Origin: Trichlorobacter lovleyi SZ
GTDB taxonomy: Bacteria; Desulfobacterota; Desulfuromonadia; Geobacterales; Pseudopelobacteraceae
Direction: 5' to 3'
Assembly (NCBI RefSeq): GCF_000020385.1
Contig: NC_010814.1
Location: 1,890,001 to 1,922,000, forward strand
Length of the DNA: 32,000 nucleotides
Below the pieces are notes generated by a model, which was not told the origin of the DNA, made no database searches, and saw only the letters and a list, made by a program, of their open reading frames with translations. Below, piece by piece: positions 6,748 through 18,880 of the stretch (positions within the stretch are counted from its first letter, which is position 1; each line of letters starts with the position of its first letter). The translations under genes were made by a program, and so were the position numbers.

Positions 6748-6796
6748 CTCTATATCTTGTGTTGTGATAGATAGTTATCCACAACATATTCTGCTG
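6747..6796 (+). promoter_or_regulatory. Candidate tandem NrdR boxes overlapping a candidate nrdD promoter
   Basis: Box 1, ACTCTATATCTTGTGT (6747-6762), matches 14/16 of the published NrdR consensus acaCwAtATaTwGtgt. Box 2, ACAACATATTCTGCTG (6781-6796), is weaker at about 9/16. The candidate promoter is TTGTGA (6762-6767), 17 nt, CATATT (6785-6790), which places the transcription start just before the riboswitch. Confidence 0.4.
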
Positions 6797-6799
6797 TTG

Positions 6800-6976
6800 G
6801 TTGGCAGAAGCACAATACATGATCAACGGTGCCCGCAAGGGCTTGATAGGGAAGTGAGGTGAAATTCCTCCACGGACCCGCCGCTGTAAGCGACGACAAA
6901 GGGCAACACAACCACTGACTGTCAAAGTCGGGAAGGTGCCTGGAGGATGACTCGCAAGTCAGAAGACCTGCCTTGA
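6800..6976 (+). promoter_or_regulatory. Cobalamin (B12) riboswitch aptamer in the nrdD leader
   Basis: Conserved core reads GGTGCC..ATAGGGAAGTGAGGTGAAATTCC..CGGACCCGCCGCTGTAAGC..ACCACTG..GGGAAGG. The B12 box is AGTCAGAAGACCTGCC (6957-6972). P1 can form between GGCAG (6803-6807) and CTGCC (6968-6972). Confidence 0.85.
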
Positions 6977-7040
6977 TCTTACATCATGAAACTCTCCGGG
7001 GATTGGGAGTTGACGCGAGATCAGGCGACGTTAAATTCGG

Positions 7041-7085
7041 AACGTCCGCATGCTGTTTCAGGCAGCTGCGGACGTTTTCAGTTTC
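7041..7085 (+). terminator. Intrinsic terminator / riboswitch expression platform
   Basis: AACGTCCGCA (7041-7050) pairs perfectly with TGCGGACGTT (7067-7076). The stem is extended by GCTG/CAGC and followed by TTCAGTTTC. It lies between the aptamer and the nrdD RBS. Confidence 0.6.
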
Positions 7086-7133
7086 TGCCACCGCACCCCT
7101 TCCCGGACTCCACAAACAAAGGAGTCTTAAGCC

Positions 7134-9143
7134 ATGACCAAACCCGTTCTTGCAGCACCGTTTTTCGTCCTTAAACGCGACGGCACCCGTGCCCCCTTTG
7201 AGGCTTCCCGCATCCAGTCTGCCATCCAGCGGGCAGGCACGGCCACTGCAGAGTTTGGCGATGATGAGGCCATGCTCATCACCAGTCAGGTACTGAAGGT
7301 GCTGCGCCACCGTTTTCCCCAGGAACCGCCCACCATTGAGCAGATTCAGGATGTGGTGGAACAGGCCCTGATCTCGGCCAACCACTTTGCCACCCTGCGG
7401 GCCTATGCGGTCTACCGCGAACAGCGCAGCCGTCTGCGCCAGGACCGCAAAACCGTGGTGGATGTAACCGCCTCGGTCAACGAGTACCTTGACCAGAGCG
7501 ACTGGCGGGTCAGTGCCAATGCCAATCAGGGCTATTCCCTGGGGGGGCTGATCCTGAATCTGTCCGGCAAGGTGATTGCCAACTACTGGCTGAGTCAGGT
7601 CTATCCGTCAGAAGTAGGGGAGGCCCACCGCGACGGTAGCATCCATATCCATGACCTGGATATGCTGTCCGGCTACTGCGCCGGCTGGTCGTTGCGGATG
7701 CTGCTGGCCGAAGGGTTCAACGGTGTGCCGGGCAAGGTGGAGGCAGCGCCGCCCAGACATCTTTCCAGCGCCGTGGGGCAGATCGTCAACTTTCTGGGAA
7801 CCCTGCAGAACGAATGGGCCGGGGCCCAGGCCTTCAGTTCTTTTGATACCTATCTGGCCCCCTATATCCGCAAGGATAGCCTGACCTACGAGGAGGTCAG
7901 ACAGCAGATGCAGGAGCTGATCTTCAACCTGAACGTGCCGTCCCGCTGGGGCACCCAGACCCCCTTTACCAACCTGACCTTTGACTGGACCTGCCCGGAT
8001 GATCTGAAGCAGCAGGTGCCGGTGATTGCCGGTGAAGAGATGCCGTTTACCTACGGCGAGCTGCAGGCCGAAATGGACCTTATCAACCGGGTCTATATCG
8101 AGGTGATGACTGCCGGAGATGCCAAGGGCAGGATCTTTACCTTTCCGATCCCCACCTACAACATCACCCCGGACTTCCCCTGGGAGAGCGAGAATGCCGG
8201 TCTGCTGTTTGCCATGACCGCCCGCTACGGCCTGCCGTACTTCCAGAACTTTGTCAATTCAGAGCTGACCCCCAACATGGTTCGCTCTATGTGCTGCCGC
8301 CTGCAACTTGATCTGAGGGAGCTGCTGAAACGGGGCAACGGCCTGTTCGGTTCAGCCGAGCAGACCGGGTCGCTGGGGGTGGTCACCATCAACTGCGCCC
8401 GCTTGGGGCATCAGCACCAGGGGGATGAGGCAGGGCTGCTGCAACGGCTGGATCAGCTGCTGGAAATCAGCCGCACCAGCCTGGAGATCAAGCGCAAGGT
8501 GATCCAGCGCCATATTGACAACGGCCTGTTTCCCTACACCAAGCGCTACCTGGGCACCCTGCGCAACCACTTCTCCACCATCGGGGTCAACGGCATCAAT
8601 GAAATGATCCGTAACTTCAGCGCGGATCAGGAGGATATCACCACCCCGGCGGGCCACGCCCTGGCCGTACGGCTGCTGGATCACTTGCGCACAAAAATGG
8701 TGGAATTTCAGGAACAGACCGGCCACCTCTACAACCTGGAGGCCACCCCGGCGGAAGGCACCACCTACCGCTTTGCCAGAGAGGACAAGAAACGCTTCCC
8801 GCAGATCCTGCAGGCCGGTACTGCAGATGCGCCTTATTACACCAACTCATCCCAGCTTCCGGTGGGCTTTACCGATGACCCGTTTGAGGCGTTGCAACGC
8901 CAGGAAGAACTGCAGCGCAAGTATACCGGCGGCACGGTGCTGCATCTGTATCTGGGGGAACAGGTCTCCAGTGTGGAGGCCTGCAAAAATCTGGTGCGGC
9001 GCTCGCTGGAGCGGTTCAGGCTGCCCTATGTCACGGTAACGCCGACCTTTTCCATCTGCCCCAAGCATGGCTACTTAAGTGGCGAACACCAGTTCTGCCC
9101 ATTGTGCGATGAAGAACTATCCCGCAGTCAATCCCAACAATAG
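7134..9143 (+). CDS. nrdD: Anaerobic (class III) ribonucleoside-triphosphate reductase, large polypeptide lacking the glycyl-radical segment
   Basis: N-terminal ATP-cone (VLKRDGTRAPFEASRIQSAIQRA...). Long NrdD core with a C-terminal Zn-ribbon-like CPKHGYLSGEHQFCPLC. The ORF stops at TAG 9141-9143, before any RxxGY glycyl-radical motif. AAAGGAG at 7118-7124 precedes ATG 7134. Confidence 0.9.
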   Translation: MTKPVLAAPFFVLKRDGTRAPFEASRIQSAIQRAGTATAEFGDDEAMLITSQVLKVLRHRFPQEPPTIEQIQDVVEQALISANHFATLRAYAVYREQRSRLRQDRKTVVDVTASVNEYLDQSDWRVSANANQGYSLGGLILNLSGKVIANYWLSQVYPSEVGEAHRDGSIHIHDLDMLSGYCAGWSLRMLLAEGFNGVPGKVEAAPPRHLSSAVGQIVNFLGTLQNEWAGAQAFSSFDTYLAPYIRKDSLTYEEVRQQMQELIFNLNVPSRWGTQTPFTNLTFDWTCPDDLKQQVPVIAGEEMPFTYGELQAEMDLINRVYIEVMTAGDAKGRIFTFPIPTYNITPDFPWESENAGLLFAMTARYGLPYFQNFVNSELTPNMVRSMCCRLQLDLRELLKRGNGLFGSAEQTGSLGVVTINCARLGHQHQGDEAGLLQRLDQLLEISRTSLEIKRKVIQRHIDNGLFPYTKRYLGTLRNHFSTIGVNGINEMIRNFSADQEDITTPAGHALAVRLLDHLRTKMVEFQEQTGHLYNLEATPAEGTTYRFAREDKKRFPQILQAGTADAPYYTNSSQLPVGFTDDPFEALQRQEELQRKYTGGTVLHLYLGEQVSSVEACKNLVRRSLERFRLPYVTVTPTFSICPKHGYLSGEHQFCPLCDEELSRSQSQQ

Positions 9144-9156
9144 AAAGGATCGGATT

Positions 9157-9333
9157 ATGAACTCAAAACAACCGCAAACCGCCATCCCTCAGGAACAACG
9201 CCAACCCTGCGAGGTCTGGACCCGCGTGATGGGTTACCACCGCCCGGTGGCATCATTTAACACCGGCAAGAAGTCAGAGTATGCCGATAGACAGTTTTTC
9301 AAGGAAGCTGCATGCTCAGCATCGGCGGACTGA
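9157..9333 (+). CDS. Small ORF (58 aa) encoding the NrdD-type glycyl-radical segment
   Basis: MNSKQPQTAIPQEQRQPCEVWTRVMGYHRPVASFNTGKKSEYADRQFF carries the class III RNR C-terminal signature (RV-GY--PV--(W/F)N-GK--E---R). Its frame is shifted +1 relative to nrdD. AAAGGA at 9144-9149 lies 7 nt before ATG 9157. The 3' end overlaps the nrdG start. Confidence 0.6.
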   Translation: MNSKQPQTAIPQEQRQPCEVWTRVMGYHRPVASFNTGKKSEYADRQFFKEAACSASAD

Positions 9334-9893
9334 CGCCGTTCACCACCATTGATTATCCCGGCAAGCTGGCCGCAGTGGTCTTCTGCCAGGGCTGCCCCTG
9401 GCGCTGCAGCTACTGCCACAACCAGCATCTGCTGGATGCTGGCCAGTCTGGGACAGTGACGTGGCAGGAGATCATCAGGTTTCTTGAACAGCGGCGCAGC
9501 CTGCTGGATGCGGTGGTGTTCAGCGGAGGTGAACCGACTATGCAGCCCACATTGCCGGAGGCTCTGCAAGCGATACGGAGGATGGGGTTTCTGACCGGCC
9601 TCCATACCGGTGGGCCGTACCCGCAACGGCTTGCTGCCTGTCTATCGCAGCTGGATTGGGTGGGAATGGACCTGAAGGCACCCTTTAAACTGTATGATCA
9701 GATCACCGGGGTTGCCGGCAGTGGCACCCTGGCAGAACAGAGTGCAGAACTTTTACGGGCAAGCGGTGTCAGCCATCAGTTCCGCACGACGGTTGATCCG
9801 TTTTTGCTTGCAGACAACAGAATTGAAAAAATGCGGCTGATGGTTGAAGGATTTGGTGCCAAGCTGTTGTTACAACAAGCTTTGCTCCGTTAA
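9312..9893 (+). CDS. nrdG: Anaerobic ribonucleotide reductase activating enzyme (radical SAM)
   Basis: The radical-SAM cluster motif CPWRCSYCHN sits near the N-terminus (IDYPGKLAAVVFCQGCPWRCSYCHN). Size and position, directly after nrdD, are typical. Confidence 0.9.
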   Translation: MLSIGGLTPFTTIDYPGKLAAVVFCQGCPWRCSYCHNQHLLDAGQSGTVTWQEIIRFLEQRRSLLDAVVFSGGEPTMQPTLPEALQAIRRMGFLTGLHTGGPYPQRLAACLSQLDWVGMDLKAPFKLYDQITGVAGSGTLAEQSAELLRASGVSHQFRTTVDPFLLADNRIEKMRLMVEGFGAKLLLQQALLR

Positions 9894-10091
9894 GTCAAGC
9901 TCGTGTTTGCCTGCTTGTCTTTTTCAGTAGATCTGCCTGAACAAAAAACAGGTTGCGCTGATATCCGTTGCCATGGTAGTTGGTGTTACGAAATATCAAA
10001 ACGTGCTACCAGCTGTGACGCTGCTTTCATTATACTATTGACACGAGTTGGTTTGTACCAGCAGGATATCAGGCGATTTGAGGAGATGATC

Positions 10092-10886
10092 ATGCAGCCA
10101 GTTCATTCAACCACCCTTGTGCTTTGTCTTGCCCTTGTAACTGCCGGTTCGGCTTTTGCCGGACCTCCCCTTGCCACTGATGATGCCGGTACGGTTGATG
10201 TCGGCAAGGTAGAGATTGAGCTGAACAGCTCCTACGGCTACGACAGGCAGACTGTTAATGGATCAACCACCAGGACCAACACCGCTGACGGAGAAGTCAA
10301 GATCACCACCGGCCTGTATAAGGATCTTGGCATCTCCCTGGCGATTCCCTACCTATTCAATGAGCGTTCCAATCTGGATGGTGCAGTGTCCAACACCGAC
10401 GGTTTCGGTGACATGACCCTGGAGGTGAAATACCGCTTTGCAGAGCTGGCCGGCATCAATCTGGCGATCAAGCCCACGGCCATCATCCCCACCGGCAAGT
10501 ACAGCAATGGCCTGTCCGAGGGGCGTTGGCAATTCGGCGGCACCCTGATTGCCACCAAAGAGTTTGCAGATGGCGCCTACGCCCTGCATGCCAATCTTGG
10601 GTATGAATACCACCACTACCGTGAAGATGAAGGCACACAGCGCAGAAACCTCTGGTCAGGCTCCATTGCCGGTGAGGCAGAGGTTGCCAAGGGGCTGTTT
10701 GCTGTGGCTGATTTCGGTCTGGCCACCAACCCGGACAAGAGCTCAAATGAGCTGCCGGTCTATGCCCTGACCGGTCTGCGGTACGAAATCAATGATCATC
10801 TGGATGTTGATGCCGGTATCAAGTTCGGTCTGACCAGGCCGGAGACCGACGTAACCGCACTGTACGGCCTGGTGCTGAAGTTCTAA
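10092..10886 (+). CDS. Outer-membrane beta-barrel channel, copy 1 (MetA-pathway/'Phenol_MetA_deg'-like transporter family)
   Basis: Signal peptide MQPVHSTTLVLCLALVTAGSAFA. Alternating beta-strand pattern with a C-terminal aromatic residue (LVLKF). GAGGAG lies 7 nt before ATG 10092. The track's 9903 start is an upstream extension. The protein is identical to the ORF at 14677..15471. Confidence 0.8.
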   Translation: MQPVHSTTLVLCLALVTAGSAFAGPPLATDDAGTVDVGKVEIELNSSYGYDRQTVNGSTTRTNTADGEVKITTGLYKDLGISLAIPYLFNERSNLDGAVSNTDGFGDMTLEVKYRFAELAGINLAIKPTAIIPTGKYSNGLSEGRWQFGGTLIATKEFADGAYALHANLGYEYHHYREDEGTQRRNLWSGSIAGEAEVAKGLFAVADFGLATNPDKSSNELPVYALTGLRYEINDHLDVDAGIKFGLTRPETDVTALYGLVLKF

Positions 10887-10889
10887 CAC
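10092..10889 (+). repeat. Left arm of a perfect 798-bp inverted repeat
   Basis: Reverse complement of 14674-15471; paired coordinates sum to 25563. Both ends were checked by eye. Nested ORFs in other frames (10349-10558/15005-15214, 10353-10616/14947-15210, 10483-10746/14817-15080, 10549-10770/14793-15014) translate identically. Identity starts exactly at the ATG and ends 3 nt after the TAA. Confidence 0.9.
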
Positions 10890-10915
10890 AGCGGAATGAG
10901 CAACAATATCGCATT

Positions 10916-11677
10916 TCAGCATTCATCAGAGATGGTGGCTACCCGGTTTCTCCCTGCATGCTTTGCCCGGTAAAGCGCTTTATCAGCTTCAGCAACCAAC
11001 TGCTCAAAATTACCGCCAGGCAGCAAGGCCGCGCTGCCGATACTGACGGTCAGCAGACCGCAGGCATCATAGGGTGGAAACGTAATACTTTCCACCCGCC
11101 TGCGGATCCGGTCTGCAATCTGAAACGCCTCTTCCTCTACGGTCCCCCGCAATAACACCAGAAACTCCTCACCCCCCCAACGGCAGAGCATATCACATCT
11201 GCGTAATGCACTACCCGCAACCTGGGCAAACTTCTTGAGTATCTGGTCTCCGGCAGTATGACCAAAGGTATCATTTACCTTTTTAAAATGATCAATATCT
11301 GCCATCAGCACAGCCAGCGGCAGCTCCTGGTCAGCATATCTGCGTATTTCATGCCGCAGGATCATGTTGGCTGCATGGCGGTTCAGGCAGCCGGTCAGCT
11401 GGTCATAGTTGGCCATATCCCGAAGCGTTTCAAAGTGGCTTTTGATCGGTCGTACGACAATATGGGCAGCCAGCGTGAGGGGGAATGCCAGGCGTGTGCC
11501 GTCAAGGCCCAGCACAACTTTGTGGCTGACCAGCGGGTCAAAATGCAGCATGTCCACCATTCTGCCTTCGCGCAGCCCCATGTCGCGTAATCGTCTGGTG
11601 TCTGAACAATTGCTGTTTATGGCAACGATTTCAGCGGTCTCCCCGGTGTATAGTTCGTTAATGTGGAGTAATGCCAA
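10916..11677 (-). CDS. FeoA-domain / GGDEF-domain fusion (predicted diguanylate cyclase)
   Basis: The N-terminal FeoA-like SH3 domain reads LYTGETAEIVAI...RRLRDMGLREGRMVDML...LGLDGTRLAFPLTLAAHIVV. The C-terminal GGDEF domain has an intact GGEEF active site and an RxxD I-site 5 residues upstream (RRCDMLCRWGGEEF). AAGGAG (11689-11684) lies 6 nt before TTG 11677, so the track start at 11698, which contains the SD, is rejected. Confidence 0.85.
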   Translation of the reverse strand: MALLHINELYTGETAEIVAINSNCSDTRRLRDMGLREGRMVDMLHFDPLVSHKVVLGLDGTRLAFPLTLAAHIVVRPIKSHFETLRDMANYDQLTGCLNRHAANMILRHEIRRYADQELPLAVLMADIDHFKKVNDTFGHTAGDQILKKFAQVAGSALRRCDMLCRWGGEEFLVLLRGTVEEEAFQIADRIRRRVESITFPPYDACGLLTVSIGSAALLPGGNFEQLVAEADKALYRAKHAGRNRVATISDEC

Positions 11678-11692
11678 GGTTATCTCCTTTAA

Positions 11693-11753
11693 TAACAACG
11701 CAGCCAGCCGAAACGGCTCCGAAAGTCTCCTGTTTTGGCTGGCTGCGTTGTTA
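11693..11753 (-). other. Long intercistronic hairpin just upstream of the FeoA-GGDEF RBS
   Basis: 17 perfect base pairs (TAACAACGCAGCCAGCC at 11693-11709 with GGCTGGCTGCGTTGTTA at 11737-11753). The stem extends to about 23 bp if G-U pairs are allowed. No U-tract follows on the minus-strand RNA; the next bases are AUUAAAGGAG. Confidence 0.5.
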
Positions 11754-11777
11754 ACGTGGCTGGCGAGTATTCAGTTG

Positions 11778-11906
11778 TCAGTGGTTGCAGCTTCCTCCGC
11801 AACCGTCGCTGCCACAGCAGCCCTTCTTTTTCCAGAGTGAGCAATAGAGGAGCCATACGGCTCCTCCTGCGATCAGGATCATCAAACTTACATCAAACCA
11901 TCTCAT
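11778..11906 (-). CDS. FeoB-associated Cys-rich small membrane protein (42 aa)
   Basis: Hand translation gives MRWFDVSLMILIAGGAVWLLYCSLWKKKGCCGSDGCGGSCNH. That is one TM helix, a KKK stretch and a Gly/Cys-rich tail, matching the known FeoB-associated Cys-rich family. It starts 8 nt after the feoB stop and is below the ORF-track length cutoff. Confidence 0.75.
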   Translation of the reverse strand: MRWFDVSLMILIAGGAVWLLYCSLWKKKGCCGSDGCGGSCNH

Positions 11907-11913
11907 GGTCGCC

Positions 11914-14055
11914 TCACAGTCCCAGGAGCCTGCCGCTCTGATAGATAATCAGCGCCACCAGCCAGGCCAGCACGGTTGAGTAGGCAAAGGCCACACCGGC
12001 CCATTTCCAGGTGCCAAACTCCTGCCGCATGGCAGCTCCTACCACCACGCAGGGCATATAGAGCAGGACAAAGGCCATGAAGCTGAATGAGCTGAGAGGG
12101 GTGAATTGACCTTGCAGCGCTGTTTTCAAGGCTGATTGTTCTTCTTCCGGCTCATCTTGCTGCGGCAGATAGAACAGGGTGCTGAAAGCCTTCTTCACTG
12201 CCCCGCCAAAGGAGACCACAAGCTCTTTCAGGTCTTCGCCAAGGGTCGGCATCTCCTTTTTCTCTTCTTCTTTCCTGGGGGCGTAGATCTCGCCCATGGT
12301 GCCCACCACGATCTCTTTGGCAATCACGCCGGTAATCAGCGATGAAGCGGCCTCCCAGGTACCGAACCCAACCGGCTGGAAGACAGGAGCAATGGCAGCG
12401 CCGGCCTTGCCCAGGTAGGAGTCGCGTTTATGCTCTACCCCCCAGGGCAGGTTCAGCATGAACCAGACCAGTACTGAGACCGCAAAGATATAGGTGCCGG
12501 CCTTGATCAGGAAGTGTTTGCCTTTCTCCCAGGTGTGCAGGCAGAGGCTGGTAAGGGAGGGCATCCGGTAGGGGGGCAGCTCCATGATGAACATGGGCGC
12601 CTCGCCCCTGAACAGGGTCTTTTTGAAGATAAAACCCATCAACACTGCCAGCAGCATGCCCAGAATGTACAGTATCCAGATCACGGTGCCGGAGTTGTTG
12701 GGGAAGAACACACCCACAAACAGCACATAGACCGGTAACCGGGCGCCGCAGGACATCAAGGGTATCAAGAGGGCGGTCAGGATCTTGTCTTTGGGGTTTT
12801 CCAGGGTGCGGGTGGCATAGATGCCCGGCACGTTGCAGCCGAAACCCAGCAGCATCGGGATAAAGGATTTGCCGTGCAGTCCAATGGCATGCATGGCCCG
12901 GTCCATCACAAAGGCGGCCCGCGCCATGTAGCCGCTGCCTTCCAGGAAGGTGATGAAGAACATCATGGCAAAGATCACCGGTACAAAGACCAGCACCGAG
13001 CCGACCCCGGCGATCACACCGTCGTTCACCAGCGACACGGTCCAGTCCGGCGCATTGATGCTGCCCAGCATGGCTGCAACCCAACGCTTGAGCGGCCCGC
13101 CCGTCATCTCGTCGATCCAGTCGCTAAATGGTGATGAGAGATCAAAGGTCAGTTTGAACAACAACCACATGGCTGCTGCAAAGATCGGAATACCCAGGAA
13201 GCGGTTCAGCACGATCCGGTCGATCCGTTCAGTCAGCTCAATGTTGCGTTTTTCAGGTCTGGATAAAACTTCACGGCACAGGCCGTTGGACAGTGCATAG
13301 CGTACATCGGCCAGAATACTCTCGATATCATCGCCGTGGGCACGCAGCAGATGTTCAAACAGCTGGGCCGGTAATGAGCCAACCGAAATGTTTGCTGCTT
13401 TGTAGACCAGACTGTCTCCTTCCAGCAGTTTTAACAACAACCAGCGCTGTGGATATTTTTCCAGCAGGCCGCCCTGTTCACGTTGGATATACTCCCGCAG
13501 TCCGGTCAGGACGGTTTCAATATCATCACCATAATTGAGTGTTCTGGGGCTGTTCCGCTTGTCTGCAACCACCGCCTTGAGCAGCTGGTCAAGGCCGGTC
13601 TTTCTGGTGGCAGAGGTAGGGATCACCGCAATACCCAGAGTCTCTTCCATCTGCCTGGTGTTGATCTTGTAACCCTTGGCCTCAGCCTCATCAAAGATGT
13701 TGAGTGCCATTATCATTGGGATGCCAAGTTCAAGCAGCTGCATGGTCAGGTACAGGTTGCGCTCAAGGTTGGTGGCGTCCACTACGTTGATGATCAGGTC
13801 AGGCTTTTCAGTGACCAGATAATCGCGGGTGATGATCTCTTCCTGGCTGTAGGGTGACAGTGAGTAACAGCCGGGCAGGTCAACCAGCCGGATACTGCGT
13901 CCATCAACATCGAACAGGGCCTCTTTTTTCTCTACTGTGACGCCGGGCCAGTTACCCACATGCAGGCGGCTGCCGGCAATGGCATTGATCAGGGTGGATT
14001 TGCCGGCATTGGGGTTTCCGGCAACAGCGACTACCAACGGTTTGTGCTGGCTCAT
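11914..14055 (-). CDS. feoB: Ferrous iron transporter FeoB
   Basis: N-terminal G-domain with GNPNAGKST (G1), DLPG (G3) and NIFD (G4-like), followed by a large polytopic membrane domain. 713 aa. The start overlaps the feoA stop (ATGA). Confidence 0.95.
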   Translation of the reverse strand: MSQHKPLVVAVAGNPNAGKSTLINAIAGSRLHVGNWPGVTVEKKEALFDVDGRSIRLVDLPGCYSLSPYSQEEIITRDYLVTEKPDLIINVVDATNLERNLYLTMQLLELGIPMIMALNIFDEAEAKGYKINTRQMEETLGIAVIPTSATRKTGLDQLLKAVVADKRNSPRTLNYGDDIETVLTGLREYIQREQGGLLEKYPQRWLLLKLLEGDSLVYKAANISVGSLPAQLFEHLLRAHGDDIESILADVRYALSNGLCREVLSRPEKRNIELTERIDRIVLNRFLGIPIFAAAMWLLFKLTFDLSSPFSDWIDEMTGGPLKRWVAAMLGSINAPDWTVSLVNDGVIAGVGSVLVFVPVIFAMMFFITFLEGSGYMARAAFVMDRAMHAIGLHGKSFIPMLLGFGCNVPGIYATRTLENPKDKILTALLIPLMSCGARLPVYVLFVGVFFPNNSGTVIWILYILGMLLAVLMGFIFKKTLFRGEAPMFIMELPPYRMPSLTSLCLHTWEKGKHFLIKAGTYIFAVSVLVWFMLNLPWGVEHKRDSYLGKAGAAIAPVFQPVGFGTWEAASSLITGVIAKEIVVGTMGEIYAPRKEEEKKEMPTLGEDLKELVVSFGGAVKKAFSTLFYLPQQDEPEEEQSALKTALQGQFTPLSSFSFMAFVLLYMPCVVVGAAMRQEFGTWKWAGVAFAYSTVLAWLVALIIYQSGRLLGL

Positions 14056-14282
14056 GGGCAGACCTCGATTTCAATCCCCTTGGCTTCATTCTTGCGCAGC
14101 GAGAGGTTGTAGCTTTTGATTGATACCTCTATCGGATCACCCATCGGCGCCACCTTTTCTACCTTAACGGTCTCGCCGGGGATTACACCCATATCCATCA
14201 GACGGCGACGGATCGGGCCGATGCTGCTGTCGAGTTTCAAAATTTTACCCTGTTGGCCAGGTTTCAGATTGCTCAGGTTCAT
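14052..14282 (-). CDS. feoA: FeoA
   Basis: 76-aa SH3-like FeoA: LSNLKPGQQGKILKL...RRRLMDMGVIPGETVKVEKVAPMGDPIEV. Overlaps both neighbouring genes. Confidence 0.9.
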   Translation of the reverse strand: MNLSNLKPGQQGKILKLDSSIGPIRRRLMDMGVIPGETVKVEKVAPMGDPIEVSIKSYNLSLRKNEAKGIEIEVCP

Positions 14283-14575
14283 GCCATAACTCCCTTCACC
14301 TTGATGCTGCGTGCCATGCGGCGGTCAATGGCGATCCGGGCTTCGTCCACCAGTAATAGCAGCAGATTGCCGTCATTGCTCAGGACTTCCACCTGCTTGC
14401 CCACCCGTAGCCCCATTTCTTCTGCCCTGGTGGCAGTGGCTTTTTTGTGGTGATGGCCGTGATCATGGTGATGAGACTGTCCGTGACTATGGCATCCGCC
14501 GCCACAACCACCGCAGTGTCTGATTTCAAAAATTTCGCCCCGTTCTCCCGGGGTAAGCAGTTCAAGTGGCATCAT
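14279..14575 (-). CDS. FeoA paralog with an internal Cys/His-rich insertion
   Basis: FeoA-like ends (LELLTPGERGEIFEI ... EEMGLRVGKQVEVLSNDGNLLLLLVDEARIAIDRRMA) are interrupted by HCGGCGGGCHSHGQSHHHDHGHHHKK. GGAGG (14585-14581) lies 5 nt before ATG 14575. Confidence 0.8.
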   Translation of the reverse strand: MMPLELLTPGERGEIFEIRHCGGCGGGCHSHGQSHHHDHGHHHKKATATRAEEMGLRVGKQVEVLSNDGNLLLLLVDEARIAIDRRMARSIKVKGVMA

Positions 14576-14673
14576 TCATTCCTCCGCTGAGAAGTTGGCC
14601 GCAAAAGATCACGGAGATCTCAAAAAAATCTATTACTTCCTTTGTGTTCCTTGCGTTCTTTTGCGGCAATCAG

Positions 14674-15471
14674 GTGTTAGAACTTCAGCACCAGGCCGTA
14701 CAGTGCGGTTACGTCGGTCTCCGGCCTGGTCAGACCGAACTTGATACCGGCATCAACATCCAGATGATCATTGATTTCGTACCGCAGACCGGTCAGGGCA
14801 TAGACCGGCAGCTCATTTGAGCTCTTGTCCGGGTTGGTGGCCAGACCGAAATCAGCCACAGCAAACAGCCCCTTGGCAACCTCTGCCTCACCGGCAATGG
14901 AGCCTGACCAGAGGTTTCTGCGCTGTGTGCCTTCATCTTCACGGTAGTGGTGGTATTCATACCCAAGATTGGCATGCAGGGCGTAGGCGCCATCTGCAAA
15001 CTCTTTGGTGGCAATCAGGGTGCCGCCGAATTGCCAACGCCCCTCGGACAGGCCATTGCTGTACTTGCCGGTGGGGATGATGGCCGTGGGCTTGATCGCC
15101 AGATTGATGCCGGCCAGCTCTGCAAAGCGGTATTTCACCTCCAGGGTCATGTCACCGAAACCGTCGGTGTTGGACACTGCACCATCCAGATTGGAACGCT
15201 CATTGAATAGGTAGGGAATCGCCAGGGAGATGCCAAGATCCTTATACAGGCCGGTGGTGATCTTGACTTCTCCGTCAGCGGTGTTGGTCCTGGTGGTTGA
15301 TCCATTAACAGTCTGCCTGTCGTAGCCGTAGGAGCTGTTCAGCTCAATCTCTACCTTGCCGACATCAACCGTACCGGCATCATCAGTGGCAAGGGGAGGT
15401 CCGGCAAAAGCCGAACCGGCAGTTACAAGGGCAAGACAAAGCACAAGGGTGGTTGAATGAACTGGCTGCAT
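14674..15471 (-). repeat. Right arm of the perfect 798-bp inverted repeat
   Basis: See the left arm. Flanking sequence diverges immediately outside the ATG and at stop+3 on both sides. Confidence 0.9.
14677..15471 (-). CDS. Outer-membrane beta-barrel channel, copy 2 (identical to copy 1), first gene upstream of feoA/feoB on the same strand
   Basis: 264 aa, identical to the product of 10092..10886. GGAG lies in the leader, 7 nt before ATG 15471. Confidence 0.8.
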   Translation of the reverse strand: MQPVHSTTLVLCLALVTAGSAFAGPPLATDDAGTVDVGKVEIELNSSYGYDRQTVNGSTTRTNTADGEVKITTGLYKDLGISLAIPYLFNERSNLDGAVSNTDGFGDMTLEVKYRFAELAGINLAIKPTAIIPTGKYSNGLSEGRWQFGGTLIATKEFADGAYALHANLGYEYHHYREDEGTQRRNLWSGSIAGEAEVAKGLFAVADFGLATNPDKSSNELPVYALTGLRYEINDHLDVDAGIKFGLTRPETDVTALYGLVLKF

Positions 15472-15472
15472 A

Positions 15473-15536
15473 AGGTGTCTCCTTTTGTTGTCAAAATTTG
15501 AAATTAGGGCTGGCTATATGGTGAGTGGAGACACCT
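15473..15536 (-). promoter_or_regulatory. SD-sequestering hairpin in the leader of porin copy 2
   Basis: On the minus-strand RNA, AGGUGUCUCC (complement of 15536-15527) pairs perfectly with GGAGACACCU (complement of 15482-15473). The second arm contains the Shine-Dalgarno GGAG and ends 1 nt before the AUG. The loop is 44 nt. Confidence 0.5.
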
Positions 15537-15552
15537 GTGGCTGGCTTACGCG

Positions 15553-15678
15553 TTATTTGGTTAAGATAAGTTTGTTGTTGCCGGTAATCCTTAAACGGTA
15601 TTCTTCATCCGCGTGCAGGATGAAGATTTCCTGCTGGTTACCAAACAGATCTGCACTGGTGATGACCCGCTTTTCCAT
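15553..15678 (-). CDS. hemP: HemP/HmuP-family small protein (41 aa)
   Basis: Hand translation gives MEKRVITSADLFGNQQEIFILHADEEYRLRITGNNKLILTK. The pattern (I-H-----Y-LR-T--(G/N)KLILTK at the C-terminus) is the hemin-uptake HemP signature. The ATG lies 1 nt after the upstream TAA. It is below the ORF-track length cutoff. Confidence 0.8.
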   Translation of the reverse strand: MEKRVITSADLFGNQQEIFILHADEEYRLRITGNNKLILTK

Positions 15679-15679
15679 C

Positions 15680-16018
15680 TTAGGTCTGTGCCTCCTTTCC
15701 TGATTGACTGCAGATAGCAGATGCCGGTTGTTGCTGTATCAAGCTGACGCAGTTGAGGCATTCACGCAAGGTACAGACACCGCAGGCGTGGTGCATGAAC
15801 ACCGGAATTCCCTGTTTTTTAGCAGCAGACACCGCTTCATTACGTGCCTGGTGCGATACCTTGTTGGTAAAGATGACAACAGCATCGGCATGTCTGATCT
15901 TGCTGCCCATGTTTTGCTCGGCCCGGCTGAAAATCCGCAGATTCATCCCCTGCTTTTTCGCCTCTTTCAGGTACTGCTCTCCTAACCGGTCCATACCTCC
16001 CACCAGTATGATGCTCAT
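15680..16018 (-). CDS. DUF2325-like protein with a C-terminal CxxC-x4-CxxC
   Basis: MSIILVGGMDRLGEQY...ADAVVIFTNKVSHQARNEAV...GIPV matches my recollection of the DUF2325 family. The tail is ACGVCTLRECLNC. ATGA overlap with the upstream gene. Confidence 0.65.
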   Translation of the reverse strand: MSIILVGGMDRLGEQYLKEAKKQGMNLRIFSRAEQNMGSKIRHADAVVIFTNKVSHQARNEAVSAAKKQGIPVFMHHACGVCTLRECLNCVSLIQQQPASAICSQSGKEAQT

Positions 16019-16740
16019 AGTTTCGCTCCATGAAGAAGATGAAAATCGATATCATTATTCTGGCAAAAAAAAGGGTGCTCAGGATCTCCAATTTCAAGCA
16101 TCCGCCGGTTGCCGGTGGCGAGAATTGCGCCCATACGTTGACGACAGCAGCGGTAGTCTTCTGCCAGACGCAGACTGTGTACCGGATTGCCGTAGATCTT
16201 CCAGAGTGCCTGGCAGGTAAACGGCAGTTTCACCAGCCCCATAAAAGCAGCCACATCCTTAGGGGGGTAGCCGATGAACAGGCCGATCTCGTGCGGGAAA
16301 CCGTCATGCTCAACAATCCGCTGTGTCAGCAGATCAAACAGTTCGTCCAGGCAGGCCTGTGGTTTGTAGCCGGCCTTGTGAAGCAGCGTGCGGATACCGG
16401 CATGGGACATATGCTGTTCCAGCTGTTTACGGTCAAAGCAGAGCAGCAGGAAGGCCTTTGGTTTGTTCTGCAGCACAATAAACTCAAGGTTGCCGAATCG
16501 GCAGGCTATCTGCTGCTGATGGGCCTGCCAGAGATGGTACAGATTTCTGCCGCAGGGCCGGGTCCTGTTAACCAGCGGAACGAGGTTGGCCGGTTTGGCT
16601 CCGGCAAGCACTTCAGAACACTCCAACATCAGATGTGCAGTCAGGCAATCCAGGGGGGATTCATATTTTGCAAGCAGTTCAGGAACGGCATGAACCATGG
16701 GTCGTGTGGTGTGTTTTCGGTCGGATCGGTAAAAACCCAT
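16015..16740 (-). CDS. DUF3793-like protein
   Basis: The motifs GAKPANL, FPHEIGLFIGYPPKDVAAFMG and WKIYGNP resemble the DUF3793 family as I recall it. First gene after the Fur-box region. Confidence 0.65.
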   Translation of the reverse strand: MGFYRSDRKHTTRPMVHAVPELLAKYESPLDCLTAHLMLECSEVLAGAKPANLVPLVNRTRPCGRNLYHLWQAHQQQIACRFGNLEFIVLQNKPKAFLLLCFDRKQLEQHMSHAGIRTLLHKAGYKPQACLDELFDLLTQRIVEHDGFPHEIGLFIGYPPKDVAAFMGLVKLPFTCQALWKIYGNPVHSLRLAEDYRCCRQRMGAILATGNRRMLEIGDPEHPFFCQNNDIDFHLLHGAKL

Positions 16741-16756
16741 GGGGGCGCCCTTTCTT

Positions 16757-16775
16757 GTAAATGATTTTTGTTATC
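16757..16775 (-). promoter_or_regulatory. Candidate Fur box upstream of the DUF3793-to-feo operon
   Basis: The minus strand reads GATAACAAAAATCATTTAC, a 14/19 match to the classical Fur consensus GATAATGATAATCATTATC. It lies 17-35 nt upstream of ATG 16740 and overlaps a candidate -10 (TATTGA). Confidence 0.45.
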
Positions 16776-16783
16776 AATAGTGT

Positions 16784-16803
16784 GTTGACAAATATATGTC
16801 AAC
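16784..16803. promoter_or_regulatory. 20-bp near-perfect palindrome GTTGACAAATATATGTCAAC (candidate operator; also supplies a TTGACA -35 on the minus strand)
   Basis: 9 of 10 positions are self-complementary. On the minus strand, TTGACA (16802-16797) lies 17 nt upstream of TATTGA (16779-16774). Confidence 0.4.
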
Positions 16804-16859
16804 TGTTTTTTGTGACTGCAGATAAAACGGTGAGTGGGACGTCTGCGGTCTACGAGAGG

Positions 16860-17312
16860 TCAGTGGTCTGAACAGCTTTTGCAAACGCCATACATAACGA
16901 TGGTTTTTGAATCTATCTGTCCCCATTGAGCAACATCGGCAGGTGGTTCCAGCGTATCTACAACAGGCCACTGAAAGTCTACAACGCGCTTGCACTGGCT
17001 GCAAATCAGGTGATGGTGGGGTGCGTAAACCGCCTCAAAACGTGCCTGGCTTTCAGCTGTTTGAATGCGTGCAACCAACTGGTGTTCCTCCAGGGTGGTC
17101 AGGGTGCGATAGACCGTATCAAGTGAGATGGTCGGGAGTGTCGCCAACAAACGCTTGTGGAGTGTCTCGGCAGTGGGGTGATCAGGCTGATTGACCAATT
17201 GTCGGTAGATTTCTGTACGTTGATGGGTGACTTTCAGACCGGCGTCTCTGCAGGCAGTCACAAACTGTTCCATCATCTGTTTAGGCTGTTCCTGACTACA
17301 GGTGGTTGCCAT
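16860..17312 (-). CDS. Fur-family metalloregulator (Fur or PerR type)
   Basis: Winged-helix region LKVTHQRTEIYRQL...HPTAETLHKRL...ISLDTVYRTLTTLEE. Metal sites HHHLICSQC and GVCKSC. 150 aa. Confidence 0.85.
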   Translation of the reverse strand: MATTCSQEQPKQMMEQFVTACRDAGLKVTHQRTEIYRQLVNQPDHPTAETLHKRLLATLPTISLDTVYRTLTTLEEHQLVARIQTAESQARFEAVYAPHHHLICSQCKRVVDFQWPVVDTLEPPADVAQWGQIDSKTIVMYGVCKSCSDH

Positions 17313-17339
17313 GGCAATACTCCATTTTTCTATTACTTG

Positions 17340-17353
17340 GTAAGAATCATTAC
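17340..17353 (-). promoter_or_regulatory. Candidate autoregulatory operator GTAATGATTCTTAC (minus-strand reading)
   Basis: Identical at 12/14 positions to the 14-mer at 18867-18880. It overlaps a candidate -10 (AATGAT) located 17 nt downstream of a minus-strand TTGACA (17374-17369). Confidence 0.4.
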
Positions 17354-17497
17354 TTCTTGCACCGCTTTTGTCAAGAAAACTGTTGCAGGTTCAACTGAAC
17401 GTGTGACGCTCCTGTAGCTTGCATGATTCTGTTTTCAGGTTACACTCAAGAAAACGTGTTGTGCTTATTTCAGGGTTCTTGAACAGGGAGGAGATGT

Positions 17498-18208
17498 ATG
17501 CCGGATAATTTACTGATTCCGTCGGTTGATTTGCGGGTAGGGGCGCTGGAGGAATATAATCGTACCCAGAAACAGAAGGCGATGCTGCGTCATAAAAAGC
17601 CGAAGCCACGTCCATGCGTGACAATTTCGCGCCAATTCGGGTGTCTTGGGTATCCGGTTGCAGAACGGGTTTGTGAGCTGATGAGCCATAAAAGTGGTGA
17701 GCAGTGGTTGTTGATCGATCGGGCCGTACTTGATGAAGTGGCAAAGCACCATAATATTTCAAAAGATATTCTTGAGAGTCTGGGGGAAAAGAACCGTCTT
17801 CTGGATGATATACTGGCAACCTTTTCTCCACGCTGGACCCATAGTCAGGACTGTTTCAGGCTGCTGTGCAAACATGTGGTCAGCCTTGCAGAACAGGGGA
17901 ATGTCATCATTATGGAACTGGGCGGGGCAATCATCACCAGGCATTTTGAACATTCAAAGCATTTCAGGATCTACGGATCAATGGATTTCAAGGTGCGGGC
18001 CATAGCACAGCGGCTTCAGATTGAGTATGCGGCTGCGGAAAAAATGGTGATCAAGCAGCAGAAGCAACGCGATGCCTTTACCAGGGATTTTCTGGATCAG
18101 GATGATCATAACCCTGCTCTGTACGAGTTGCTGTTCAATAATGATCGTAATTCCGTTGAAAAAATTGCCGCCACCATAGTCGCCTATGTTGCGGATGAAC
18201 TGTTGTGA
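17498..18208 (+). CDS. Cytidylate-kinase-like family (P-loop-like) protein
   Basis: PCVTISRQFGCLGYPVAERVCELM... resembles the 'cytidylate kinase-like family' N-terminus. GGGAGGAG precedes ATG 17498. Confidence 0.6.
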   Translation: MPDNLLIPSVDLRVGALEEYNRTQKQKAMLRHKKPKPRPCVTISRQFGCLGYPVAERVCELMSHKSGEQWLLIDRAVLDEVAKHHNISKDILESLGEKNRLLDDILATFSPRWTHSQDCFRLLCKHVVSLAEQGNVIIMELGGAIITRHFEHSKHFRIYGSMDFKVRAIAQRLQIEYAAAEKMVIKQQKQRDAFTRDFLDQDDHNPALYELLFNNDRNSVEKIAATIVAYVADELL

Positions 18209-18298
18209 AATTAATTATTGACATTTTACTAGATAGGTATTATTCCTAACAAACCGATTCCGGTCGGTGCTACTACTTTCAAACTGGAGGACGTTCCC

Positions 18299-18805
18299 AT
18301 GGCTAATGGACCAAAATCTGAAAAAAATCTACAGGATGCTTTTGCCGGTGAATCCCAGGCTAACCGTAAATATCTGGCATTTGCCAAGCAGGCTGATAAA
18401 GAAGGTTTCCCTCAGGTCGCCCGCCTGTTCCGTGCTGCTGCCGAGGCAGAGACGGTGCATGCCCATAATCACTTGAAGGCGCTTGGCGGGATCAAAACCA
18501 CCAGGGAAAACCTGGTGGAGGCAATTGGCGGCGAGACCCATGAGTTTAAAGAGATGTATCCACCCATGATTGAAGCTGCCAAGGAAGATGGCGCTGCTGA
18601 AGCCCTGCGTTCCTTTACCTATGCCAATACTGTGGAAAAGACCCATGCCGAGCTGTATCAAAAGGCCTTTGATACCCTTGGCCAGACTGGTGAACAGTTT
18701 GATTACTATGTTTGTCCGATCTGCGGTCATACGGTAGAAAAGGGTGCGCCGGACAAGTGCGAGGTCTGTGGAGCTGCCGGTTCGGTATTTGTGCAGATTA
18801 AGTAG
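18299..18805 (+). CDS. rbr: Rubrerythrin (ferritin-like diiron domain plus C-terminal rubredoxin-like CxxC...CxxC)
   Basis: LQDAFAGESQANRKYLAFA...EAETVHAHNH..., then CPICGH...CEVCGA. Confidence 0.9.
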   Translation: MANGPKSEKNLQDAFAGESQANRKYLAFAKQADKEGFPQVARLFRAAAEAETVHAHNHLKALGGIKTTRENLVEAIGGETHEFKEMYPPMIEAAKEDGAAEALRSFTYANTVEKTHAELYQKAFDTLGQTGEQFDYYVCPICGHTVEKGAPDKCEVCGAAGSVFVQIK

Positions 18806-18866: not shown

Positions 18867-18880
18867 GTAATTATTATTAC
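18867..18880 (+). promoter_or_regulatory. Candidate operator GTAATTATTATTAC upstream of katG
   Basis: 14-bp palindrome with 6/7 self-complementary pairs. It overlaps a candidate -10, TATTAT (18872-18877), located 18 nt after TTGATT (18848-18853). It matches 17340-17353 at 12/14 positions. Confidence 0.4.

Follow-up and report, generated by a model that had tools for sequence, protein, structure and literature searches.

Why does feoB, the ferrous-iron transporter gene of Trichlorobacter lovleyi SZ, stand in a row with genes for two DUF proteins, a HemP-type peptide, an outer-membrane porin and a diguanylate cyclase? The genes lie in a stretch of 32,000 nucleotides (nt) of its genome (NC_010814.1, positions 1,890,001 to 1,922,000), which we call the window and in whose coordinates positions are given. 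A preliminary description of the window had read them as one expanded Fe(II) operon. Our analysis makes it likely that the locus is a member of the extended ferrous-iron uptake cluster of the Geobacter 'feoB-2' type. All nine minus-strand genes named in that description were found at their positions, in a listing of open reading frames (ORFs) combined with Pfam and NCBIfam profile scans:

16015-16740, minus strand: cytoplasmic DUF3793 protein (PF12672, 142 bits)
15680-16018, minus strand: DUF2325 protein (PF10087, 94 bits)
15553-15678, minus strand: HemP/HmuP-family small protein of 41 amino acids (aa) (PF10636, 68 bits against a cut-off of 25)
14677-15471, minus strand: porin A, a PF13557 beta-barrel (75 bits), lying in a repeat arm at 14674-15471
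14279-14575, minus strand: FeoA', a FeoA paralogue with a Cys/His-rich insert (CGGCGGGCHSH...HHHDHGHHH) (PF04023, 45 bits)
14052-14282, minus strand: canonical FeoA (PF04023, 85 bits)
11914-14055, minus strand: FeoB, Fe(II) permease/GTPase (TIGR00437, 648 bits against a cut-off of 316)
11778-11906, minus strand: putative FeoB-associated Cys-rich membrane peptide, 42 aa
10916-11677, minus strand: FeoA-GGDEF diguanylate cyclase (PF00990, 150 bits; PF04023, 46 bits), with GGEEF and an RxxD I-site

FeoB is complete in its domains (FeoB_N, FeoB_Cyto, Gate and FeoB_C; PF02421, PF17910, PF07670 and PF07664, all above cut-off). The canonical feoA lies directly upstream of feoB and overlaps it by 4 nt, the second paralogue feoA' lies further upstream, and from feoA' to the Cys-rich peptide the genes overlap or stand 7 nt apart. 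The cyclase gene starts with TTG at 11677, preceded by an AAGGAG ribosome-binding site. When the sequence was read directly, the four junctions cited in the preliminary description proved exact: ATGA overlaps at 16015-16018, 14279-14282 and 14052-14055, and TAA-g-ATG at 15682-15676. A route for Fe(II) from the outer membrane to the cytoplasm, together with a signalling output, can reasonably be inferred.

The linkage is conserved in related genomes, four of which share the order. In Geobacter sulfurreducens KN400 (CP002031.1, locus L091), one strand carries DUF3793, DUF2325, an OprB porin, FeoA, FeoA, FeoB, the FeoB-associated peptide, FeoA-GGDEF, HD-GYP and HemP. Geobacter sp. FeAm09 (L182) has DUF2325, a PF13557 porin, FeoA, FeoA, FeoB, the peptide, FeoA-GGDEF, HD-GYP and FUR, and is without DUF3793. 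The metagenome-assembled genome GCA_964509295.1 (L184) has katG, FUR, DUF3793, DUF2325, a PF13557 porin, FeoA, FeoA, FeoB, the peptide, FeoA-GGDEF and HD-GYP, and an uncultured Geobacter (L011) has DUF3793, DUF2325, HemP, porin, FeoA', FeoA, FeoB and the peptide, with no GGDEF gene. As the window is oriented, it presents the order DUF3793, DUF2325, porin, FeoA', FeoA, FeoB, Cys peptide, FeoA-GGDEF on one strand. Two Thermodesulfovibrio-like loci (L093 and L185) are rearranged: DUF2325, OprB, FeoA-GGDEF, HD-GYP, FeoA, FeoA and FeoB. The outer-membrane barrel at this operon position comes from two unrelated families, PF13557 (the window, L011, L182 and L184) and OprB (L091, L093 and L185), suggesting that some channel is needed there, and no particular one.

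A DUF3793 profile scan with one genome per species gave 80 loci, mostly from Clostridia (best identity 62%; the source species was not among them). FeoB was within 10 kb of DUF3793 in 28 of the 80 species, and in 24 of those 28 the distance was at most 3 kb. DUF2325 was at most 300 nt from DUF3793 in 24/80 loci. The controls were 80 unrelated, generic GGDEF loci from a metagenome scan with the FeoA-GGDEF alignment, in which only the GGDEF-domain patterns were used; none of them contained FeoB, FeoA, DUF2325 or DUF3793. For the DUF3793-FeoB linkage (28/80 vs 0/80) Fisher's test gave p = 4e-10, the control loci being shorter (mean 9.5 kb vs 16 kb). The linkage of DUF3793/DUF2325 to feoAB recurs in Geobacterales, Nitrospirota and Clostridia.

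The preliminary description was not aware of any report of this arrangement as a unit, and in that it went too far: parts of it are in Rodionov et al. 2004 (PMC545781) and Butler et al. 2012, and the same set is present in G. sulfurreducens. In G. sulfurreducens, genX-genY and porin-feoA-feoA-feoB2 were predicted by Rodionov et al. to be under Fur control (PMC545781). In the KN400 DNA, we read genX as the monohaem cytochrome GSU3274 and genY as the counterpart of DUF3793. A hybrid iron transport/cell signalling protein with a phosphohydrolase downstream was mentioned by Butler et al. 2012. A full-text literature search found no paper on a FeoA-domain cyclase, nor one that connects Feo with DUF3793 or DUF2325. 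The cluster type is present in known genomes and partly described, and the window holds a further member. As far as the searched literature shows, the cross-phylum linkage of DUF3793/DUF2325 to Feo, the arrangement of HemP with HmuP-responsive elements (HPREs) and the repeat-bracketed cassette are undescribed.

Several features of the locus bear on its control:

16860-17312, minus strand: Fur-family regulator, PerR-leaning (PF01475, 101 bits), between the katG/rubrerythrin genes and the operon
16759-16779, minus strand: Fur-box-like operator TATTGATAACAAAAATCATTT, 18 nt upstream of the DUF3793 ATG
15508-15546, minus strand: pair of AGCCAGCC motifs, HPRE-like, in the 81-nt porin A leader
14576-14673, minus strand: structured 101-nt porin-feoA' spacer (fold z = -2.7), inside the repeat-bracketed segment
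11693-11764, minus strand: GCCAGCC/AGCCAGCC motifs and a 22-bp hairpin (z = -4.6)

The Fur-box-like site noted earlier ahead of the operon is real (16779-16759) and, as a predicted Fur-family operator, is conserved in orthologous loci. The operator TATTGATAACAAAAATCATTT overlaps the -10 element of a TTGACA-17-TATTGA promoter (TTGACA at 16802-16797) and has 3 mismatches to the delta-proteobacterial FUR box WTGAAAATNATTTTCAW (consensus from PMC545781). Only this consensus was matched; the E. coli Fur-box consensus gave no match at up to 3 mismatches. One copy of the 21-mer TATTGATAACNAAANTCATTT is present in each of L001-L006, L011, L015 and L184, and it is conserved across four species. It is upstream of the called DUF3793 start in L001-L006, L011 and L184. 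In L015 its position is 48 nt into the longest mechanically listed ORF, so that the true start of DUF3793 there should be further downstream. A perfect 7-6-7 palindrome, GTTGACAAATATATGTCAAC (plus strand, 16784-16803), contains the -35 TTGACA of the DUF3793 promoter and is not conserved in L011 or L184. The motif TATTGACA was considered as an operator and rejected; it is enriched in the window (5 matches vs 0.67 expected) but was treated as an extended -35 element.

In the spacer between hemP and the porin gene, AGCCAGCC was seen twice against about 0.003 expected (chance of at least two, about 4e-6), and one GCCAGCC and one AGCCAGCC stand just before FeoA-GGDEF. GCCAGCC/AGCCAGCC is the HPRE core quoted for chuR and vbuA of Chromobacterium violaceum, in which the HemP-family protein ChuP is a post-transcriptional activator (PMC9131926). 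Pairs of AGCCAGCC follow each hemP copy in L011 and KN400 and are absent from five checked loci without hemP. As in the HmuP/ChuP systems (Ensifer meliloti shmR, C. violaceum chuR and vbuA), a small HemP-family gene is directly upstream of an outer-membrane transporter gene with a motif-bearing leader (PMC9131926). Those systems target TonB-dependent haem or siderophore receptors, with motifs about 4 nt apart. At the T. lovleyi locus, the motifs are 23-31 nt apart and the putative targets are a diffusion porin and a cyclase that makes c-di-GMP (cyclic di-GMP), joined in L011 by tonB-exbBD. The putative HemP target downstream of hemP is thus the 264-aa PF13557 barrel and not a TonB-dependent haem receptor. 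L011 (15518-17388) has another hemP copy, likewise paired with AGCCAGCC motifs, ahead of genes that we read by eye as tonB-exbB-exbD, which suggests that HemP/HPRE control reaches the energy-transducing complex there.

The invariant residues of DUF3793 include C32, C63, H113, H150 and C199, and the core of its AlphaFold2 model has pLDDT >90. It has no PDB sequence match, and its best fold match (E = 0.028, TM = 0.25) was discarded as not meaningful. For DUF2325, the CxxC-x4-CxxC tail noticed earlier was borne out as C79xxC82-x4-C87xxC90, conserved within a motif HHxCxxC-x4-CxxC. Its AlphaFold2 model (pLDDT 80) has a small Rossmann/CheY-like fold, for which the fold search gave generic alpha/beta matches only; the search of the PDB by sequence gave none. 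FeoA' is a distinct paralogue, conserved together with its Cys-containing insert in L011, L091 and L182; the His run is lineage-specific, while the Cys-containing insert is common to other Geobacterales. The Cys-rich peptide scored 11.7 bits for PF12669 against a cut-off of 27. Its position and its 42-aa length are those of the L091 and L182 peptides, which are above the PF12669 cut-off, and phmmer gave 8e-10 to 1e-14. Position, length, the layout of a transmembrane segment plus Cys tail and the phmmer similarity argue for its placement in the FeoB-associated family.

The FeoA-GGDEF family comprises about 85 clusters at 90% identity, from Geobacter, Desulfuromonadaceae, Nitrospirales and Thermodesulfovibrio. 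Among 32 aligned members, R159, R160, D162, G168, G169, E171 and F172 are invariant and E170 is conserved in at least 90%. The protein of the window has an intact active site, RWGGEEF (TIGR00254, 162 bits), with an RxxD inhibitory site, RRCD, five residues upstream of it, and is apparently catalytically competent. In 6/7 other contexts sampled, FeoA-GGDEF is in a feo cluster, and in 6/6 of these an overlapping HD-GYP (HD_5) gene comes next. This partner is absent at the T. lovleyi SZ locus, where the cyclase stop codon is 29 nt from the end of porin B, a second porin gene. The remaining context is L186 (8001-9271), in which a FeoA-GGDEF homologue (73% identity) stands outside any feo cluster and adjoins a flavodoxin gene. 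Flavodoxin is classically induced by iron starvation. Fur control of flavodoxin has been predicted in Desulfovibrio (PMC545781).

If the locus is an extended uptake cluster, it might work as follows. A promoter operated by a Fur-family protein would drive DUF3793-DUF2325-hemP, then the porin after its 81-nt leader, and then the feo genes. Fe(II) would cross the outer membrane via the dedicated beta-barrel and be imported by FeoB, which the two FeoA paralogues and the Cys-rich membrane peptide would assist. HemP, like HmuP/ChuP, may be a post-transcriptional activator that acts on the AGCCAGCC elements and raises expression of the porin, and perhaps of the GGDEF gene, when iron is limiting. Through its FeoA domain, the cyclase may dock on FeoB or sense what FeoA itself senses, so that transport status would be passed on as c-di-GMP. 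DUF3793 and DUF2325 might be cytoplasmic Cys/His proteins that handle or sense the incoming iron or its redox state.

A repeat search of the window found a 798-nt inverted repeat that had been missed in the preliminary description. Its arms (10092-10889 and 14674-15471) are 100% complementary; each starts at the ATG of a porin gene, takes in the whole gene and ends 3 nt beyond its stop codon. The second gene is:

10092-10886, plus strand: porin B, an identical second copy of porin A (repeat arm 10092-10889)

Porin A has an N-terminal signal-peptide-like sequence and a C-terminal Phe, as read directly. Porin B is downstream of nrdD-nrdG and convergent with the GGDEF gene. Its upstream region differs from that of porin A and has neither a Fur box nor a AGCCAGCC motif. 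The two copies bracket a 3,784-nt segment with feoA', feoA, feoB, the Cys peptide and FeoA-GGDEF. This duplication is specific to the strain, as is the absence of the HD-GYP partner. Between arms so long and perfectly alike, general recombination would be expected to invert the segment at some frequency and could so place it behind either the Fur-box promoter or that of porin B. Since the repeat edges coincide with the porin ORF, gene conversion between paralogues, and not random segmental duplication, is suggested. A composite transposon was rejected as the origin, as no transposase is present and the extent of the repeat is just that of a single porin ORF. Other contigs also end at the edges of the repeat, which is therefore real and no artefact of one assembly.

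The porin gene is also a hot spot of polymorphism among genomes that are otherwise about 99% identical (window 14677-15471 vs 11270-12070 of L001, L002 and L003). Over the first 128 nt, L001 and L003 do not differ from the window, and L002 has three differences; beyond them, L001 and L002 are only about 80% identical to the window. The porin gene of L003 is a mosaic with a single hypervariable patch at about window 14900-14960. The pattern resembles that of allelic replacement, or of diversifying selection acting on a surface protein. In the neighbouring nrdD, the coding sequence is apparently split into a 669-aa ORF (7134-9143) and a 58-aa ORF in another frame (9157-9333), which holds the glycyl-radical motif (RVMGY) and overlaps the nrdG start. 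L094-L098 show the same split, which may be natural or may come from a frameshift or a sequencing error.

Several observations weigh against reading the locus as one extended uptake unit. The adjacent Fur-family regulator leans towards PerR rather than Fur: its best NCBIfam match is PerR, and its best PDB match is B. subtilis PerR (2fe3, 3e-24, vs 2e-19 for Fur). The katG and rubrerythrin genes are on its far side, and the order katG-FUR-DUF3793 is also found in L184. A 14-nt motif, GTAATnATTnTTAC, stands before the regulator gene (17340-17353, minus strand), where it overlaps the predicted -10, and before katG (18867-18880, plus strand). Three matches at two sites were found against 0.05 expected. 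This motif, which differs from the box ahead of DUF3793, is a candidate operator for the PerR-like regulator. The junctions, said to be overlapping or very short, are so at the four cited places, but three of the eight are long: 81 nt from HemP to the porin, 101 nt from the porin to FeoA' and about 100 nt from the Cys peptide to FeoA-GGDEF. The last of these spacers contains a terminator-like hairpin, homologous to the canonical terminator after the Cys peptide in L011, which is followed there by UUUUUUAUUU; the cyclase is probably expressed by read-through or independently. Scanned against Rfam (E up to 1), the region 9000-18500 gave no match, so the hairpins are not known riboswitches and the HPRE is no Rfam family.

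Further points on the same side come from the closest relatives, L001 and L002, in which the DUF3793 protein is identical and the flanks are about 99% identical to the window. They have DUF3793-DUF2325-HemP-porin without the feo genes, of which only a 220-nt feoB remnant is left. The porin has no PDB match by sequence, and the Pfam name of its family is 'putative MetA-pathway of phenol degradation'. The role of DUF3793, for which there is no fold match, is a guess. The hairpin, the module without feo in L001 and L002 and the position of the feo segment between inverted repeats weaken the earlier view of a single nine-gene transcript. As for the replacement itself, 7.9 kb of the window (6755-14643, nrdD-nrdG-porinB-GGDEF-Cys-feoB-feoA-feoA') correspond to 1.75 kb in L001 and L002 (12104-13854). 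The shorter block carries the feoB 3' remnant and a CCP_MauG cytochrome c peroxidase gene and is without nrdDG and porin B.

It is possible, though not probable, that the orientation of the feo segment in the window is a choice of the assembly. The true or dominant order would then be nrdD-nrdG-porin-feoA'-feoA-feoB-Cys-GGDEF, with DUF3793-DUF2325-HemP-porin converging on it. The two repeat arms are perfectly identical, and both isomers would share one assembly graph, so that short reads cannot fix the orientation. The exact FeoB protein occurs only on contigs of 2-5 kb, which match the window at 100% identity and end in the repeat, and the contigs arriving from the HemP flank and from the nrdG flank break at its edges. 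Both orientations are seen, in different assemblies: L094 (GCA_047291845.1) and L096 join nrdG-porin to feoA'-feoA at 100% identity, and L095, like the window, joins it to the GGDEF end at 100% identity. Three findings support the orientation of the window as the ancestral one. L003 reads continuously from HemP through its porin, a 95%-identical allele, into the feoA' leader; the feoB 3' remnant of L001 and L002 follows the porin in operon orientation; and the order of the window is that of every other species sampled. The collinearity claimed earlier thus holds for the window as oriented, but public assemblies disagree on the 3,784-nt segment, and nine genes in a row are therefore not certain for the T. 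lovleyi SZ genome. The nine-gene collinearity is probably ancestral, without being guaranteed in this strain.

We consider it rather unlikely that the locus consists of two or three independent neighbouring modules: a peroxide, haem or redox module (DUF3793-DUF2325-HemP-porin) under the adjacent PerR-like regulator, a porin-feoA'AB-Cys cassette, and a separately expressed FeoA-GGDEF gene. The four-gene module of L001 and L002, the feo cassette behind nrdDG-porin in L094 and L096, the hairpin ahead of the GGDEF gene and the solitary FeoA-GGDEF homologue of L186 would fit this, as would the PerR-like regulator flanked by katG and rubrerythrin. In Campylobacter jejuni, the DUF2325 protein Cj1384c is regulated by PerR and adjoins katA (PMC9426514). 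It is likewise a small Cys-rich protein with a Fur-family regulator and a catalase gene at hand; in the window, DUF2325 is two genes from the PerR-like regulator, and katG is about 3 kb off, beyond it. For Cj1384c, however, neither a feo linkage nor a DUF3793 partner has been described. Against independent modules stand the linkage of DUF3793/DUF2325 to feoAB in three distant groups, the feoB remnant that L001 and L002 keep downstream of the porin in operon orientation, and the resemblance of the operator to the FUR box before feo genes (PMC545781).

A more speculative and doubtful idea is that feoA'-feoA-feoB-Cys-FeoA-GGDEF is a recombination-driven invertible cassette, with the porin genes as its 798-nt arms. 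It would be a promoter-swap switch of iron uptake, made out of a duplicated structural gene and without a dedicated invertase. On inversion, the transporter and the cyclase would move from a promoter with Fur box and HemP/HPRE control to that of porin B downstream of nrdDG, which has neither Fur box nor HPRE, and a porin gene would precede feoA' in both states. As in invertible switches of the fim/hin type and in plastid inverted repeats, a segment lies between inverted repeats and inversion would exchange the promoter that reads it. Unlike the short recombinase sites of such switches, the repeats here are of gene length, and no recombinase gene was found among the neighbour families within about 10 kb. 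A role of the porin in passing hydrophobic or aromatic compounds, with no relation to iron, is very improbable: the phenol-degradation name of its family speaks for it, while a barrel from one of two families occupies the same operon position in every relative, and Fur-regulated porins for Fe(II) were proposed by Rodionov et al. (PMC545781).

Read as an extended uptake cluster, the locus resembles its relatives to different degrees. It shares with the feoB-2 cluster of G. sulfurreducens (GSU3268 region, KN400) the gene order from DUF3793 to FeoA-GGDEF, the 42-aa FeoB-associated peptide and a nearby hemP. In G. sulfurreducens, however, the porin is of the OprB family (469 aa) and single-copy, DUF3793 is preceded by the monohaem cytochrome gene (GSU3274) and not by a Fur-family gene, hemP comes after the HD-GYP gene and not before the porin, and the HD-GYP partner is present. 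The GSU3274-homologue gene of KN400 (L091 3797-4284), which encodes a CxxCH motif and has a Fur box, GTGAAAAACATTTTCAA, contains an early in-frame TGA and may be a pseudogene. The L182 and L184 clusters have the PF13557 porin, the FeoA' paralogue, FeoA, FeoB, the Cys peptide and FeoA-GGDEF in common with the window, and L184 also has katG, the Fur-family gene and an identical operator core before DUF3793. They differ in having HD-GYP directly after FeoA-GGDEF, a single porin copy, no hemP and no AGCCAGCC motifs (the motifs were checked in L182). The canonical feoABC of Escherichia coli and other gamma-proteobacteria combines FeoA and FeoB under Fur-type control. The T. lovleyi locus shares FeoA and FeoB with it, is without FeoC, and has two FeoA paralogues, the Cys-rich peptide, an outer-membrane channel, DUF3793, DUF2325, HemP and a FeoA-fused cyclase.

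As one more member of the cluster type the window is of limited value; its own addition is the repeat-bracketed cassette and the clear HemP/HPRE arrangement. The cluster type bears on two questions, how FeoA controls FeoB and how Fe(II) passes the outer membrane of Gram-negative anaerobes. Candidate answers are gathered in it: a channel, two FeoA paralogues, a FeoA-fused cyclase that usually has an HD-GYP phosphodiesterase with it, and two Cys/His proteins. Of the latter, DUF3793 shows its link to feoAB all the way from Clostridia to Geobacter, and DUF2325 goes with DUF3793 or feo genes in Geobacterales, Nitrospirota and Clostridia alike. Since the cluster is present in the genetically tractable G. 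sulfurreducens KN400, these predictions are testable there.

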